From Octopus vulgaris (Eukaryota): a stretch of 64,000 nt of DNA. The stretch is from NCBI GenBank assembly GCA_951406725.2, contig OX597822.1, positions 74,338,001 to 74,402,000 of the forward strand, read 5' to 3'. Under the pieces are notes generated by a model, which worked only from the letters and a program-made list of their open reading frames with translations, did no database searches and had not been told where the DNA came from. This document shows positions 3,244-51,475 of this stretch, one piece after another. The translations under genes were made by a program, and so were the position numbers. How positions within the stretch are numbered: position 1 is the first letter of the stretch; the number at the start of each line of letters is the position of its first letter.

Positions 3244-3373
3244 ACACACATATAAATATATATACATATACATATATATATGTATATACATACATATACG
3301 CATATATATATATATATATAATTAAATTAGAGATAAAACCACTATTAGGCATATATGTATATATATATATTTA

Positions 3374-5463: not shown

Positions 5464-5582
5464 TTTTTATATATATATTATATTTTGTGAAATTTGATTT
5501 AGTATTTCTAAATTGAATTTTTCCCTGTAAGTTAGGAATAATATTCCCTCAAATAATTATATATATATATATCTATATCTAC

Positions 5583-5640
<58 letters not shown>

Positions 5641-5762
5641 ATTTTGTGATCTAGTTATATGTTTTATAATATAGTTTTTCTTTATGATTTGGTTTATGTC
5701 TATCATTGTTTGAATTACATAATAGTGGTTTTTCTCTAATTTTTATATATATTATATATATA

Positions 5763-5811
<49 letters not shown>

Positions 5812-8300: not shown

Positions 8301-8309
8301 TGTATATAT

Positions 8310-8400
<91 letters not shown>

Positions 8401-8798
8401 GGGAATAAATCCAAACTTACAGGGAAAAATGAGATTTAGGATTAAATCCAATTTTATAGTATAAATATATTATATTATATTATATTAAATTAGAGATATA
8501 ACCACTATTAGGCAAATCAAACAGTGAAAAACAAGCCAATACATAAAATTAATTTGATATATAAAAGTTAAAAATAAAAAATTATTTAAATAATTTAAAC
8601 TTATAAATTTTACATATATATACAAATATATATATATGTGTATGAAATAAATATAAGAGAGTGGTCACTATATGGCTCACTCTAGCACCAGTTAATCCAA
8701 AAGGTTTCAACCACAAAAATACATGTTTCCCATGAAAGACAGTACGATTGTTAGCTCACACGGACAGGGCAAATAAAAAATAACAAAAATACAGATTA

Positions 8799-8880
8799 TT
8801 TTGGGACAATTGTTTCGCTATTAATGAATTAAATGTAATTTTACTTACAAAAAAATCCACTTGTAGCTCGTCAGCCAAAA
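8799..8880 (-). ncRNA. Type I hammerhead ribozyme, tandem copy 1
   Basis: Minus strand: TTTTGG-CTGACGA-GCTA...TAGC-GAAA-CAATTGTC-CCAAAA. Stem I has 6 bp, stem III is the palindrome ACAATTGT, and cleavage falls between 8805 and 8804. Confidence 0.88.
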
Positions 8881-9333
8881 CTATCTGGATGAAATCCACT
8901 CAATCACACGCCAGATTTTACCATAACGATAAATACGCGTGTGGTTCAATTGATTACATCCGACGTTATAATTCAAATGCCCCAACTAACAGCGCGCCAA
9001 ACTTTCACGGAAAACAAATACAGTATTTAGAAATAAATGCAGCATAATTATAATTAATTAATAAGGGTGAGAGAATTAGATACTAACTTAATAGTATATC
9101 TATTCAACACCAAGTGGCCTAGTGCTCCGAGAAACCTGGATTATTATAATATTTTATAATATATTATAATATTTTTACAAAATAAATATAAGAGAGTGGT
9201 CACTATATGGCTCACTCTAGCACCAGTTAATCCAAAAGGTTTCAACCACAAAAATACATGTTTCCCATGAAAGACAGTACGATTGTTAGCTCACACGGAC
9301 AGGGCAAATAAAAAATAACAAAAATACAGATTA

Positions 9334-9415
9334 TTTTGGGACAATTGTTTCGCTATTAATGAATTAAATGTAATTTTACTTACAAAAAAATCCACTTGTA
9401 GCTCGTCAGCCAAAA
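9334..9415 (-). ncRNA. Type I hammerhead ribozyme, tandem copy 2
   Basis: Identical to 8799-8880, offset by 535 nt; cleavage falls between 9340 and 9339. Confidence 0.88.
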
Positions 9416-9678
9416 CTATCTGGATGAAATCCACTCAATCACACGCCAGATTTTACCATAACGATAAATACGCGTGTGGTTCAATTGATTACATCCGACG
9501 TTATAATTCAAATGCCCCAACTAACAGCGCGCCAAACTTTCACGGAAAACAAATACAGCATTTAGAAATAAATGCAGCATAATTATAATTAATTAATAAG
9601 GGTGAGAGAATTAGATACTAACTTAATAGTATATCTATGTATGTATATTTTTATATTTATATATTATTTTATCAATTA

Positions 9679-9709
<31 letters not shown>

Positions 9710-10038
9710 TTTATTTATTTTTATTTATTTATTTATTTTTTATATATATATCAAAAGTATTAAAAGTTTAATAAAAAATTTTAAAAATTAAAAAAATAAA
9801 TAAATTAATTAAATAAATTAATTAATTAATTAATAAAATAATATATAAATATAAAAATATACATACATACATACATATATATATATTTGTATATATATAT
9901 AAAATTTATAAGTTTAAATTATTTAAATAATTTTTTTATTTTTAACTTTTATATTTTAAATTAATTTTATGTATTGGCTTATGTTTTTCACTGTTTGATT
10001 TGCCTAATAGTGGTTTTATCTCTAATTTAATATAAATG

Positions 10039-10115
<77 letters not shown>

Positions 10116-42883: not shown

Positions 42884-42996
42884 TATATGTACACGCACAC
42901 ATATATATACATATGTATATATGCATGTAAATATCTATCTATCTATCTATCTCTTTCACTCTCTCTCTCTCTATATATATATATATATGCCCCCTA

Positions 42997-44430
42997 GTGG
43001 CGTCTCTTCCCTCCCACATCCACGACACCAACCATGCTCTCCGGCTTTTCAACTCTTTCTCCTTTCCTCCCGGCTCCTCCAAAATCCTTTTTACAATGGA
43101 CATCAAGAGCCTCTATACCGTCATCCCTCACCACGAAAGACTGCGGGCACTTCAACACTTTCTCGACCTCCGCCCCAACCCCGAACCCGACACCTCCACA
43201 CTCATTCGTCTGGCCGAACTTGTCCTTTCTCTTAACTGCTTCTCGTTCGCGGGCGAGTTCTACCATCAGATCTCGGGAGTGGCCATGGGAACGCGAATGG
43301 GCCCCAACTATGCGAATCTGTTCGTTGGCTATGTTGAGGCCCAAATATTCTCTAGTTTCATTGGTCCCACTCCCGAACTATACGGTCGTTACATTGACGA
43401 CATTATCGGTGCCACCTCACTCTCCCGTGAACATCTAGATTCCTTCCTCTCTTTCGTTCAATCCTTCCATCCTGCCCTCTACTTCACCTCCACTATCTCT
43501 AACACCTCTGTCTCCTTCCTCGACATTTCGGTCAGCATTCATCAATTCACTCTTACCATCTCCATTTACTACAAACACACAGACTCACACTCATACCTAA
43601 ACTACTCTTCCTCCCACCCCAAACACACCAAGCTTTCCATCCCCTATTCCCAATTCCTCCGTCTACGTAGGCTCTGTAGTGACGGCCATGACTTTGAGAC
43701 TCAGTCTCAACTCATGGCTCGCCACTTCATCCTACGTGGATACCCCCTCACCACTATCCACACCGCCCTTGCCAGAGCACGTTCCGTAGACCGTGCATCT
43801 GCTCTCTCCCCTCGAACCCGCCCTGCAGTCTCCCGCCTCCCTTTTCCCCTCACTTACCACCCCACCACCCTACCTCTTCGAGCTTTCCGGCATCTCCAGT
43901 CCGACCCGTTCACTTCACACCTCTTCCCTAACCGACCCCTCCCCTCCTTCAAACGAGCCCATAACCTACGAGACCTCTTGGTTCACAGCTTCTTCCCTGA
44001 CCCTACCTCCCAACCTGGCTCGTTCCCCTGCTCCCGCCCACGTTGCCGTACTTGCCCTTACCTCTCTAACACCACCCTCCTCACCGGCACCCATCATCGA
44101 CACTATCGCATCATCGACTCCTTCACCTGCACCTCCAGCAAAATCATCTATTGCATCTCCTGCTCTCTCTGCCATTCCCTGTACATCGGACAAACGGGAC
44201 GCCGCTTGGCTGACCGGTTCGCGGAATACCTCCGAGACATCCGCCTTGCCAATGACACACCGGTCTCACGCCATTTCCGCTCCACTGGTCACTCCTTGGA
44301 ACACCTGTCTGTGTCGGATTGTTCTTGCACAGAGGCCATCCGGATTCCCGCTTGCACCGTGAACAGGGATTAATCATCTCTCTTCGCTCTTTTACGCCAT
44401 TTTGTCTCAACTCTCCCCGCCTTTTCATCT
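42997..44430 (+). pseudogene. Penelope-like reverse transcriptase + GIY-YIG endonuclease (5'-truncated, late frameshift)
   Basis: [42 protein letters not shown], a Cys-rich linker CSRPRCRTC and IIYCISC..C..LYIGQTGRRLADRF. After a frameshift near 44312 another frame gives RLHREQGLIISLRSFTPFCLN, the GIY-YIG end. Confidence 0.9.
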
Positions 44431-45209
44431 AACCTCCCCCCGACTCCTACTTCTCTTCAGTCCTTCATCTTTTCACCCCTACTCTCTGTCCCTCCTCTTC
44501 CCTTCTTTCCCATCTTCCCTCTTCTTTCTTCTTTCTTCTTCCCTCTTCCCCTTCTCTCTTTCTCTCTGCTCCCTCACTCCCCTTCTCTCCCCCTCCCTCT
44601 CTTCCTCTCCTTCCTTCTCCTCTCCCTCCACCTCCTCCCCTCTCCCCCTCATCTCCTTTATCCCCTCTCCCCCTCATCTCCATTCTCCCCTCCCCTCTCT
44701 CCCCTCCTCTCTCTTCTCTCCCCTCTCATTCTCCCCACAACCCCCACTCTACCCCAACCACCAGCCGAACCCACACCCCACATGGGCTTTCCCCACTCTC
44801 GCCCCCACCTCCCCACAACATCACACCACACTACACTACACCATACATCACACATCACATCACAACACACCACCCACAGCACACCGCCCACATTACACAT
44901 CACATCACAACACACCACCCACACAACCATCCCCATATCTCCACACCCACACATACACACGTCCAGACCACCAGCCCTCTTTCACACGCACATACATACT
45001 CTCTTATACACACACGCACCTTCATGTTGGGGCGAAGTCACTTGACCCTGTTATCTCCCCTACTATCCCTCTAGCGTCTAACGTCTGACCTCTGACGTCT
45101 GACGTCTGACCTCTGACTTCTGCCTGAAATCAGAACGCCATGATGGACCGTTAGCTCCTACACGCATTTTTTTCTCTCCTTGTTTCACTCCTTGTTTCTT
45201 TTCTGTGTA

Positions 45210-45247
45210 TCTTTCTGTCGAAGAGCGTAGGCTCGAAACGTTAAAGA
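45210..45247 (+). ncRNA. Degenerate hammerhead motif in the Penelope pLTR
   Basis: TCTTT-CTGTCGA-A-GAGC/GCTC-GAAA-CGTT-AAAGA. Stems I and II are intact, but the core has A6->U. Confidence 0.5.
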
Positions 45248-45339
45248 CTTGTTTTATTTCTATTCCTGAGCGCCATACTAATACAATTGTTTGTACTCCA
45301 CTTGCCTTCGTCTTTTGTTTATTTTCGTAAACCTTCCCG

Positions 45340-45385
<46 letters not shown>

Positions 45386-45545: not shown

Positions 45546-47663
45546 TAGTTTTATTTTTATAGCGTGCTTTCACTTCACTACCGAGCGCAGCTCTGTGTGC
45601 CTTGGGTATGTGCTGTGATTTGTTGTGATGCTCTGATGGTTATTGTATGGAAAGTGTTCTGCGTAGGATGTGTGCAGTGCCTAGTAGTGCAATTTTCTGT
45701 ATGTTATATGTGTTTGTAAGTCCTGGTGTTTTTGTTATGTATTTGTCTGAATATTTTTTTATCATGCCTAATGCACCTACTATGATAGGAATTGTTTCTG
45801 TTTTCAGATTCCACATTCTAGTTACCTCTATTTCCAGGTCTTTGTATTTTGAGAGTTTCTCCATTTCTTTTAGAGACACGTTGTCATCAGCCGGTATTGA
45901 TACATCAATTAGAAAGCATTTTTTTCTTCATGATCTCTGACAACTATATCTGGTCTGTTGGCCTTAATTTCTCTATCTGTGTGTATCGGCATATCCCAGA
46001 GTATGGTTGCTTTCTCGTTTTCTGTGACCTTTTCTGGTGTGTGCCTATACCATCTTTTTTCTGTTGTTATTCCATAATGTTGGCATAGCTTCCAATGTAT
46101 GTAGGTTCCAACTCTGTCATGTCTGTGAATATATTCCTTCTTAGCCAGGACTGGGCAGCTAGAGATAATATGATTTATTGTTTCTTGTCCATCTCCACAT
46201 ATTCTGCAGTTACTTGTAATATTTCTTTTCATTACATGTTTTTGGCAATTTCTGGTGGGGAGACTTTGGTCTTGTGCTGCAATTAAAAATCCCTCTGTTT
46301 CTGCTTTGAGTCCTGAGCTTCTCAACCATTGCTGGGATTTTTCTTTGTCTATTTCTTTTGCGTTTAGTTTAGTCCAGTATTTACCATGAAGGGGCTTTTC
46401 TTGCCATCGTTTTATCATGGTTCGTTGCTGTTCTATTTTTAGTTTGGATTTCACTTGTTTTATAGCTTTTGTTGTTTCTTCATCTTCTTCTTCTTCTTCA
46501 TGTTTATTAGGTGGTATGATTTCTTGTTTGTATTTGTCAGCTTCCTTAAATACTGAGAACAGTTTTTTGCTTTGCTCGTGTTTTGCCGCTATCTGGATCA
46601 GTTTTCCTTCCTTCTGAAGTAGATATTTTTGCAGTCCTATGGTGGTTATTTTATAGTAGCTTTCCAGCTGTATAAAGCCTCTACCACCTTCTATACATTG
46701 TATATATAGTCTTTCTATGTCAGATTTTGGGTGATGCATCCTAGATCCTGTCATTATTTTTCTTGTTTTCCTATCTATTTTGGTCAGTTCATTTCGTGTC
46801 CAGTTAAGGATATTATAGCTGTAACTTATAACTGGGACAGCTAAAGTGTTGATACCTATTATCTTGTTTTTAGCATTGAGCTCTGTGTTTAGTATTGATC
46901 TAACTCGTCTATAATATTCTTTTTTATTTTCTCTTTCATTTGTGTGTGTTGTGTCTTATCTAGTTCATGGATTCCTAAGTATTTGTAAGTTTGGCTTTGG
47001 TCTAATTCTTTTATTTCATTGGTTTTATCTAGTGTGATGTTGTTACTCTTAACTAGTTTTCCTCTTTTCATGGTTACTTTGGCGCATTTTTCTAATCCAA
47101 ATTTCATATCTATTTCTTTGGTAAATCCATGAACTGTCTTTAATAGTGTTTCCAGCTGTTTGTCATTTGCAGCGTATAGTTTTAGGTCATCCATATATAA
47201 AAGGTGGCTGATCGTTTTACCGTAACATTTATATCCGCATCCAGTTCTATTTAGCATATCAGATAGAGGTGACAGTGCCAAGCAGAAAAGGAGTGGAGAG
47301 AGCGTGTCTCCCTGGAATATTCCTCTTCTAATGGGGATGTCTTTGGTTTTCATGAGTCCCTCTTTTGTTTGGAGGTGTAGGACTGTTTGCCATTTATTCA
47401 TAGAGTGCTCTATGAATTTTATGATTGTTGGTGCTACTTTGTTAATGGCTAGTGTTTCGAGGATCCATGTGTGGGGGATGCTATCAAATGCCTTTTTGTA
47501 GTCAATCCAGGCCATACTGAGGCCTTTCTTCTTTCTGTGGCTGTCTTCAGTTATGGCTTTATTAATCATTAGTTGATCTTTACAGCCATATGAGCCTTTG
47601 CGGCATCCTTTCTGCTCTTCTGGGAACAGTTTGTTTTCGTCCAGGTGCTTGTTCAGCCTTTGT
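45543..47663 (-). mobile_element. R4/Dong-like REL non-LTR retrotransposon, 5'-truncated and frameshifted, in (TAA)n
   Basis: RT motifs IDYKKAFDS, GIFQGDTLSPLLF and HLLYMDDLKLY; CCHC CRICGDGQETINHIISSC; RHD; PDIVV; KLSKY; IIVGALG. (TTA)n at 45473-45542 and 47666-47752. Confidence 0.88.
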
Positions 47664-47665
47664 GA

Positions 47666-47749
<84 letters not shown>

Positions 47750-47753
<4 letters not shown>

Positions 47754-49196: not shown

Positions 49197-50144
49197 TATG
49201 TTTGACTTTTGCTTTATATTTGTACAAGTTGGCTTCAAGTCTCACCCAGAGACCTCAAGAGACAACAGGTTGGAAGTTCATGTTGTTGTTATGCCTAGTG
49301 TGCCATATATTTGGGGGGTGTGGAGTTTTTGGTGTTGTACTAATGAATGTCTAAAAAAAGAAAGTTTTTTTTTTTTTAAACCGAAAATTATGTTTGTTTT
49401 AAACCTTGAGATTACATAGAAAGTATTTTGCGTAGGATATGAGCAGTTCCCATGAGCACTATCTTTTGAATTTCTGCCATTTTTGGGTTTCCTGGTATCT
49501 GAGTTAGGTAGCTATCAGCCCCTTTTGCTATCATTCCCAGGGCACCTATGACAACAGGTATTGTTTTAGTCTTCAGCTTCCACATTTTGCTGATTTCTAT
49601 TTTAAGATCTTTATATTTGCTCAGTTTTTGGTAGGTCTTGACAGATACGTTTATATCGATTGGGACAGTCATATCAATGAGGAGGCATGTTCTTTGTTTG
49701 AAGTCTTTCAATATGATGTCTGGCCTATTTGCATCTATCTTTCTGTCAGTTTGAATGGTGAAGTTCCAGAGGAGTGAGATGTGGTCATTTTCAAGCACTG
49801 GGAGTGGTTTGTGTTCCCACCAGTTTTTTTCATGGGGCAAATCCAGGTTTTTGCAGATTACCCAGTGAATATATTGTGCAGCTCTATCGTGTCCGTTGAG
49901 ATACTCTGTAGGCGCTAGAAGACTGCACTTGGAGACCACATGGTCAATGGTTTCATTTTGTTGCTGGCATACACGACACGTTGGACTGCTTCTGATCTTT
50001 AATATGTTGGCCTGGTAGTTTCTTGTTGGTAGGCATTGATATTGAGCTGCTATGATAAACTCCTCTGTTTCAGATTTTAAGCCAGAGGCCATTAGCCATT
50101 GATGGGTCAGGGCTTTGTCAACATCTTTGTCAGGGCTTTGTCAA

Positions 50145-50146
<2 letters not shown>
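49196..50146 (-). mobile_element. R4/Dong-like element 3' fragment (second subfamily) in (TAA)n
   Basis: ORF 49412-50092: CRVCQQQNETIDHVVSKC, HD, RPDIIL, KLSKY, VIGALG. Confidence 0.88.
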
Positions 50147-50234
<88 letters not shown>

Positions 50235-50236
<2 letters not shown>

Positions 50237-50962
50237 TATGTTTGACTTTTGCTTTATATTTGTACAAGTTGGCTCCAAGTCTCACCCAGAGACCTCAAGA
50301 GACAACAGGTTGGAACTTCACATTGTTGTTATGCCTAGTGTGCCATATATTTGGTTGTTTTTTGTGTTGAACTGGTGAATGTCTAAAAAAAAAAGAAAAG
50401 AAATGTTTGTTTTAAACCTTGAGATTACATAGAAAGTATTTTGCGTAGGATATGAGCAGTTCCCATGAGCACTATCTTTTGAATTTCTGCCATTTTTGGG
50501 TTTCCTGGTATCTGAGTTAGGTAGCTATCAGCCCCTTTTGCTATCATTCCCAGGGCACCTATGACAACAGGTATTATTTTAGTCTTCAGGTTCCACATTT
50601 TGCTGATTTCTATTTTAAGATCTTTATATTTGCTCAGTTTTTGGTAGGTCTTGACAGATACGTTTATATCGATTGGGACAGTCATATCAATGAGGAGGCA
50701 TGTTCTTTGTTTGAAGTCTTTCAATATGATGTCTGGCCTATTTGCATCTATCTTTCTGTCAGTTTGAATGGTGAAGTTCCAGAGGAGTGAGATGTGGTCA
50801 TTTTCACGCACTGGGGGTGGTTTGTGTTCCCACCAGTTTTTTTCATGGGGCAAATCCAGGTTTTTGCAGATTACCCAGTGAATATATTGTGCAGCTCTAT
50901 CGTGCCTGTTGAGATACTCTGTAGGCGCTAGAAGACTGCACTTGGAGACCACATGATCAATG

Positions 50963-50963
<1 letters not shown>
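50235..50963 (-). mobile_element. R4/Dong-like element 3' fragment, near-identical to 49196-50146
   Basis: Same 3' terminus (CTATGTTTGACTTTTGC on +) and the same REL peptide, with a shorter 5' truncation; (TTA)n on both sides. Confidence 0.88.
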
Positions 50964-51015
<52 letters not shown>

Positions 51016-51051
51016 CATTATTATTATTATTATTATTATTATAATCATTAT

Positions 51052-51123
<72 letters not shown>

Positions 51124-51475
51124 TATTTGTCCTTCTGCTCAAAGTCAAACGAAATGGAAATGAGGATGAAGTCGAAGAAAAAAATGGAAGAGAAAAAGAA
51201 GAAAAACAGAAGAAGAAAAAGAAGAAGAAGAAGAAAGAGGAAGAAAATGAGGGGGACGAGGGGGAGGTAAAAACCCAAGAGCAGTGGAAGAAGTCTTCAA
51301 GTCTGTAAAATTTAAATGGTCCTAGTGCCATATGTCTCATGTCTTCACAATACTCATTGCCACGTTCAACATAAGTGACGTTACAATTGCGCCACAAATA
51401 CATTTACACATAATACATTATTGGCGTCAATATTTAGAGCCGACATTACCATTAGCATATGTGACAGTTTCGGGA

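Follow-up and report, generated by a model that had tools for sequence, protein, structure and literature searches.

The 535-nt hammerhead-bearing repeat described here, from Octopus vulgaris, is very probably an animal non-LTR retrozyme, likely copied in trans by a Penelope-like reverse transcriptase (RT)–endonuclease and nested in the (TATG)/(TA) tract of a fold-back repeat. It was found in a 64,000-nt stretch of contig OX597822.1, hereafter the window, and its features are collected in Table 1. Going by its sequence and the available text of 10.64898/2026.07.22.740005, the family fits the operational definition of a non-LTR retrozyme given there, with at least two consecutive tandem units, a type I hammerhead, no coding sequence, a low GC content (32% in the unit), dispersed loci, and a size in the published range. 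The same source gives consensus lengths of 51-972 bp and derives the class from the pseudo-LTRs (pLTRs) of Penelope elements. An earlier note on this DNA had regarded the long unit as unusual, but 535 nt falls inside that range. Its broader description, a young, non-autonomous, hammerhead-bearing tandem retroelement, agrees with what we find: a multicopy element of the non-LTR retrozyme kind with Penelope-type insertion marks. Plant-type LTR retrozymes carry a type III hammerhead in LTRs that flank a unique core (10.64898/2026.07.22.740005), and this class was ruled out by the type I hammerhead in head-to-tail units.

The 535-nt family is new as a family, whereas the kind of element is already known. 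We found it undescribed in the literature on octopus or cephalopod hammerheads, Penelope elements, and circular RNA; supplements, Repbase, or Dfam may hold it. In the giant squid genome, 235 Rfam hammerheads are listed without analysis in the part of the report available (PMC6962438).

Structure of the locus

Self-comparison at an offset of 535 resolves the array at 8645-9638 (minus strand) into 1.86 tandem units of 535 nt. The match spans 8645 to 9103 with a single mismatch in 459 positions, at 9024/9559, which bears out the two near-identical units and single substitution of the earlier note. The 5' junction of the second unit shares a 2-nt microhomology with the host sequence. The predicted cleavage sites lie 535 nt apart, 9339 to 8805, so that as sequence geometry the proposed release of a 535-nt product holds. 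No ORF of at least 100 aa occurs in the region, again as noted earlier, and stop-free runs in the circularised unit extend to at most 48 aa on the strand of the hammerhead and 87 aa on its complement.

Table 1. Coordinates of the retrozyme array, its hammerheads, and the surrounding repeat in the window
Feature	Position	Strand	Details
(TA)n tract, left flank of W insertion	8303..8398	.	
Family W left arm, outer part	8392..8644	-	W's long 3' end, with 63-nt extension absent from right arm
Full 535-nt retrozyme unit, 3' copy	8645..9179	-	3' end 8645 = end site A, unit position 535
Type I hammerhead 1	8793..8886	-	core CUGACGA 8874-8868; predicted cleavage after C 8805
Conserved structured domain across unit junction	9045..9226	-	site A (9180/9179), site B (about 9049, unit position 131)
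Second unit, 5'-truncated	9180..9638	-	unit positions 77-535, first 76 nt absent; one mismatch vs first unit
Type I hammerhead 2, identical to hammerhead 1	9328..9421	-	core starts 9409; predicted cleavage after C 9340
Family W left arm, inner part	9639..9776	-	resumes from 8644 past array
Family W right (inverted) arm	9777..10035	+	ends at W's short 3' end
(TA)n tract, right flank of W insertion	10030..10113	.	

The array is flanked by arms of a second repeat family, here called W. The inverted repeat pairs 9873-10035 with 8480-8639 (96% over 163 nt) and continues on the far side of the array, where 9639-9776 matches 9777-9873. The ~155-bp inverted repeats described in the earlier note are thus real, though their length was understated and they belong to a separate family rather than to the retrozyme. 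In the window the W arm stops at 8644 and resumes exactly at 9639, its inner part being 5'-truncated just short of W's own hammerhead-like motif. The outer 206 nt of the wrapper has 403 candidate places in the genome, 40 of which were scored, and the W arm is continuous and unit-free at 19/19 other fetched loci, one of which (L043) folds back before the point of unit insertion. Conversely, none of 29 other unit loci has W arms around the unit; one has an 87% fragment nearby. The array is therefore inserted into the internal (TATG)/(TA) tract of a fold-back W copy, and the wrapper, once listed as an unusual feature, is a different repeat family split by the array. Because the insertion lies within this tract, a target-site duplication is unreadable at the window locus. 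The W arms differ from each other by 3 substitutions in 133 non-repetitive columns and the units by 1 in 459, an order in line with W being older than the array.

These data also bear on two alternative accounts of the locus. That the whole 8480-10035 block is one terminal-inverted-repeat element, fold-back or MITE-like, with the hammerhead pair as cargo, draws on arms that are real and do flank the pair. We give it almost no credence, as the other unit loci lack the wrapper, the arm family lacks the unit and resumes where it stopped, and L044/L048 hold a similar fold-back with no insert. It is only marginally less remote that the tandem duplication is an assembly artefact, a concern raised by the microsatellite flanks and by our use of the assembly without reads. 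The unit copies differ at one base yet have two locus-private variants in common, the array ends on site A with host sequence intact on both sides, and the same architecture recurs at dozens of loci.

W itself (window 8392-8644 and 9639-10035; L035, L036, L041, L160-L174) is very AT-rich, non-coding over more than 1 kb, and frequent as fold-backs in (TA)n. Its two ends are separated by 63 nt, and further upstream it has a hammerhead-like motif (CUGAAGA ... GAAA, with the palindrome ACGAUCGU and a long stem II) that is missing from the window copy; folding gave this motif no support (z = -0.9, tested without the 5' strand of stem I). No ORF was seen upstream of W in 5 translated loci, within which the W 5' end was not reached. 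W may be a second, larger non-autonomous family of Penelope type. Older relics of W or a relative, 75-97% similar, lie at 5468-5780 and 3302-3351 of the window.

The family across the genome

An exact 20-nt core occurs 218 times in the 2.8 Gb genome searched (control, 0). A relaxed core pattern yields 2,139 (reversed control, 21), with other families contributing a few of the 100 matches listed, and a second motif, taken from the unit junction, has 2,187 against 0. We thus count about 2,100 hammerhead motifs, including relatives down to about 60% identity. The copy number and array length that the earlier note had asked for come to 218 exact cores and, at the loci inspected, arrays of under 1 to about 13 units. 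For detailed inspection, 60 loci were retrieved (58 grouped from 100 listed exact-core matches, plus two more), together with 37 further loci picked from the looser-pattern matches, five of which were other families. The same compact layout recurs in subfamilies with identities of 93-98%, about 77%, about 71%, and 60-66%. Loci are dispersed over many contigs as monomers to multimers, and no ORF continuous with the unit was seen in the 37 loci scanned.

Several loci show peculiarities of their own. L142 has a Penelope fragment beyond its 3' end, past a microsatellite tract. L072:6183-6609 is a scrambled, TA-invaded copy (84-86%) located 2.6 kb from a clean copy and resembling a poorly assembled duplicate. 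L126, L127, L128, and L129 represent other small families without BLAST similarity to the unit that have the ACAAUUGU hammerhead palindrome and a long stem II in common with it; L127 also forms a fold-back.

Conservation of the hammerhead

Each unit carries a hammerhead on the minus strand, as the earlier note had recognised, with CUGACGA cores starting at 8874 and 9409. Stem I comprises 11 bp with one mismatch, and stem II has 4 bp extended by a 43-nt hairpin insertion, followed by GAAA. The Rfam models, under gathering and E-value thresholds, left the motif undetected, probably because of this insertion. The palindromic helix III, ACAAUUGU, precedes the cleavage base, C17, which falls at 8805 in the first hammerhead; the helix is self-complementary, with a predicted 8-bp duplex of -6.4 kcal/mol, consistent with the earlier suggestion that two copies could pair. 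Hammerheads whose helix III has 2 bp and a palindromic loop reportedly require a dimer (PMC4209133).

Across 18 sequences, 90% of the cells in the drawn structure are paired, compared with 31-42% in slid controls. Two-sided changes affect 10/22 pairs, including 6/11 in stem I and 4/4 in basal stem II, counts that are inflated by kinship among the 18 sequences; the core and helix III were set by the search pattern. Taken alone, the count of pairs with two-sided change is no better than in shuffles (47/500), and the first stem II pair is non-standard in 9/18 sequences. The pattern left free the position following GU, which in 18/18 sequences holds C, U, or A and in none G. The compensatory changes, across about 40% divergence, indicate at the level of sequence that the hammerhead is under selection.

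The 535-nt RNA folds better than its shuffles (z = -5.5; 0/100 as good). In the predicted minimum-energy fold of the monomer, the core is caught in an inactive pairing that lies 8 kcal/mol below the active fold as drawn, and cofolding two copies likewise fails to recover the active dimer. From motif and conservation we infer that the hammerhead would self-cleave; in Xenopus, 1/9 predicted retrozyme dimers cleaved in vitro (10.64898/2026.07.22.740005).

Insertion ends and the junction domain

The 3' ends fall at two places in the unit. Among 100 ends in 60 loci, a count that leaves out one degraded L072 copy and one stray L083 piece, 46 coincide with unit positions 533-535 (site A) and 50 with 129-137 (site B), leaving 4 elsewhere. 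The two sites, 131 nt apart, thus account for 96/100, and 95/100 ends run into TA. Head-to-head inversions are present at 40/60 loci, 37 of which pair one A with one B end and none of which pairs two alike; the remaining 3 are one duplicated locus with a cut arm. By our own arithmetic, assuming independent 50:50 ends, the chance of 37 mixed pairs is near 2^-37. The one-of-each rule extends to 11/11 inverted loci of the 93-98% subfamilies, where B ends are loosely mapped. The A and B motifs are separated by 132 nt here and by 107-110 nt in the older subfamilies.

Both sites belong to the conserved domain that spans the unit junction (Table 1). Its helix 9226-9220 with 9125-9119 shows compensatory changes in 3/6 pairs (9 sequences), and the window sequence of the domain folds with z = -2.1. 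From these features we infer that it is a domain at which reverse transcriptase would start.

By analogy with described Penelope insertions, the two-site ends, one-sided tail, head-to-head arms, and TA targets form a Penelope insertion signature. Such insertions have an inverted copy and a one-sided tail of 30-40 bp (PMC8557442, PMC3846280). [quoted passage not shown] In the titles and abstract openings of the literature searched, we found no report of two-site ends for a retrozyme.

The RNA template

From a cleaved linear monomer, cDNA could extend at most 160 nt from site A or 291 nt from site B. In 88 arms, a set without 8 irregular or duplicated loci, 77 cross the cleavage site and 27 cross two or more. 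Read-through of the cleavage site by most arms excludes the cleaved linear monomer as the usual template. The 5' ends do not pile up there, with 7/88 within 366-390 against 4.1 expected (p = 0.12) and 0 at 373-379.

The two arms of an insertion carry matching alleles. Linked site tests between arms gave 0 discordant results in 129, against about 39 expected, and among 35 testable loci a minor allele occurred in both arms of 13 and in one arm only of 0. Divergence is 0.51% within a locus compared with 1.06% between loci (202 pieces, 59 loci), and of the private variants, 15 occur in every copy of their locus, 8 in some of the copies, and 90 in a single one. Units within a long array are mostly near-identical. 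The arrays L076 and L141 have variants common to subsets of units, which a pure monomer circle cannot give. In L076 (G000:C3:179746950-179753718; about 12.7 units), intact units alternate roughly with units that carry two core changes, one of them at G8, and an array of this type would release a dimer-length RNA; a clean dimer-circle reading of it was rejected, as the alternation is imperfect.

The arm and allele data fit rolling round one circle and also copying of a homogeneous read-through multimer. We lean slightly towards a circular template. A rolling-circle copying model was proposed, and circles documented for coral and axolotl retrozymes, in PMC7229834; by analogy, a circular RNA from the 535-nt unit is plausible. 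Of 21 sequencing-run entries listed for the sequence, from 7 studies, 19 contain at least half of its words and none is recorded as RNA, a result that counts neither for nor against expression. The 8805/9339 junction is also present in tandem genomic DNA and in uncleaved read-through RNA.

Candidate helper elements

No sequence shared with the unit was found in three Penelope families, namely that at 43-45 kb of the window, a GIY-YIG family (25 loci), and a family with a 781-aa ORF (6 loci). The earlier suggestion that the RT family at 43-45 kb copies the unit is without sequence support, the best BLAST match having E = 4, though that family could still be the helper. The window element (42,931-45,340, plus strand) is a 5'-truncated, Penelope-like element with an RVT_1 match and a GIY-YIG-like end. 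It has a pyrimidine-rich 3' region and, near 45215-45243, a hammerhead-like motif, a short form that differs from the unit's hammerhead, and it ends in (TA)n. Fragments of another non-LTR retrotransposon family, with an RVT_1 match, lie between (AAT)n tracts at 45909-47752 and 49412-51138 (minus strand). The old GIY-YIG family mostly ends near (AAT)n and has no BLAST match to the unit across its 25 loci.

The 781-aa family (L200-L205) is a candidate helper. It retains intact ORFs in many copies and inserts into (TA)n, and about 35 nt separate its two ends. At one end, a hairpin is followed by CUUAU, like the ends of the unit, a resemblance too weak for a claim. The family is young; its 3' region consists of repeated TGATGACGT-containing blocks and includes a variant hammerhead-like motif with palindromic ACAUGU.

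Comparison with known systems

Like animal non-LTR retrozymes, for which Penelope-like mobilisation has been proposed, the octopus family has tandem non-coding units with a type I hammerhead each, low GC, and dispersed monomers to multimers (PMC7229834; 10.64898/2026.07.22.740005). Its unit is longer than the 220-390 bp units studied experimentally, its stem II carries the hairpin insertion that Rfam misses, and a related Penelope pLTR was not found among the three families. Fixed two-site ends and head-to-head insertions are not described in the available text of the same two sources.

With Penelope-like insertions the family shares partial tandems, head-to-head copies, two 3' end sites, a one-sided tail, and AT-rich microsatellite targets (PMC8557442, PMC3846280, PMC11167929), as well as a hammerhead with a palindromic helix III (PMC4209133). 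In contrast, the octopus tail of 107-132 nt is three to four times the published 30-40 bp, the unit has no ORF, and its hammerhead is canonical-like with a long stem I, whereas theirs is of the minimal form. Chlamys elements such as MRC1 are likewise non-autonomous and form multicopy head-to-tail insertions via Penelope-type machinery, but they resemble an autonomous partner at the 3' end and most are without canonical hammerheads (PMC8557442). The octopus hammerhead is conserved, and no partner was found among the three families. The pDo500 satellite of Dolichopoda crickets, whose unit is about 500 bp, as its name implies, also combines a tandem unit with a hammerhead; as far as the accounts available go, it is satellite DNA, whereas the octopus arrays are short, dispersed, and bear retrotransposition marks.

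Proposed mechanism and alternatives

In the mechanism we propose, arrays would be transcribed on the hammerhead strand, neighbouring hammerheads would pair through ACAAUUGU and cut, and part of the monomer would close into a circle. A Penelope-like protein, probably a dimer, would bind the structured junction domain and nick (TA)n. cDNA would then start at site A or B, or at both, one per DNA strand, yielding head-to-head insertions. With a circle or an uncleaved multimer as template, cDNA would run through the cleavage sites and produce ready-made arrays of under 1 to about 13 units.

Two rival readings we regard as improbable. The unit could be the pLTR of a Penelope-like element that is itself autonomous and whose copies with an ORF escaped notice, the arrays being its 5'-truncated ends. 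The end pattern is exactly that of Penelope pLTRs, the 97 inspected loci sample roughly 2,100 motifs, and 21 Penelope matches are reported among Xenopus retrozyme families (10.64898/2026.07.22.740005). Yet what lies upstream of each unit is the previous unit, in arrays of up to about 13, and neither the 37 ORF-scanned loci nor the flanks of 60 loci contain an RT or GIY-YIG ORF continuous with the unit. Moreover, of the 20 5' ends in the young subfamily that are not inverted, 11 adjoin TA tracts and 9 adjoin flanks that differ from one another, and the compact layout is kept in subfamilies down to 60% identity. Marginally less probable still is a satellite origin, in which monomers were inserted one at a time and unequal crossing-over then expanded them on the spot. 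Amplification at the site once a copy has inserted is what Li et al. favour (10.64898/2026.07.22.740005), and homogeneity within arrays and the subset-shared variants of L076 and L141 would suit it. Unequal crossing-over does not account for arrays that start at scattered phases and end at two fixed sites, for inverted insertions in which both arms are multi-unit and obey the one-of-each rule, or for the dispersal of loci over many contigs.

A closer competitor retains the retrozyme assignment and differs in the RNA that is copied. Here, Penelope machinery would copy uncleaved read-through multimers, with the hammerhead cutting rarely or late and no circle being formed. We consider this possible, though somewhat doubtful. 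Hammerhead cleavage is dispensable for anole Penelope insertion in vitro, where hammerhead mutants still insert and unprocessed RNA is the main substrate (PMC11167929). The mixed arrays L076 and L141, with the rough alternation of core-dead and intact units in L076, point the same way, and a homogeneous source array also accounts for alleles common to both arms. Weighing against it are the retention of the hammerhead with compensatory changes across about 40% divergence, the fifteen locus-private variants present in every copy of their locus, and the circles documented in coral and axolotl (PMC7229834). Repeated truncated copying of linear RNA would also be expected to shorten arrays, which are not shortening over the history of the family.

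A bolder form of the retrozyme reading, which we advance tentatively and hold a little short of an even chance, is that the family is a viroid-like lineage of circular RNA, gene-less through about 40% divergence. A dimeric Penelope RT would start simultaneously at two fixed sites on one circle, one per nicked strand, and roll round it. If so, each head-to-head array would preserve in the genome a direct trace of target-primed reverse transcription by rolling circle, and the RNA signal recruiting the enzyme would be the junction domain, 180 nt long and covarying.

Implications

How retrozymes are mobilised is still to be worked out (10.64898/2026.07.22.740005), and Penelope mobilisation of animal retrozymes is a standing hypothesis based on co-occurrence and sequence kinship. 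In the octopus family, an ORF-free unit bears the enzymatic fingerprint of Penelope, and linear monomers released by cleavage can be set aside as its usual template. That head-to-head insertions so strictly combine one A with one B end, in arms with matching alleles, suggests a single use of each RT start per integration, a point relevant to the way Penelope elements form inverted ends. What is new in the octopus family is the insertion record, the long tail, and the template constraint; the kind of element being known, it is a good model case rather than a new class. With a compact unit, a covarying junction domain, and intact 781-aa Penelope ORFs in one genome, it offers a small, testable system.
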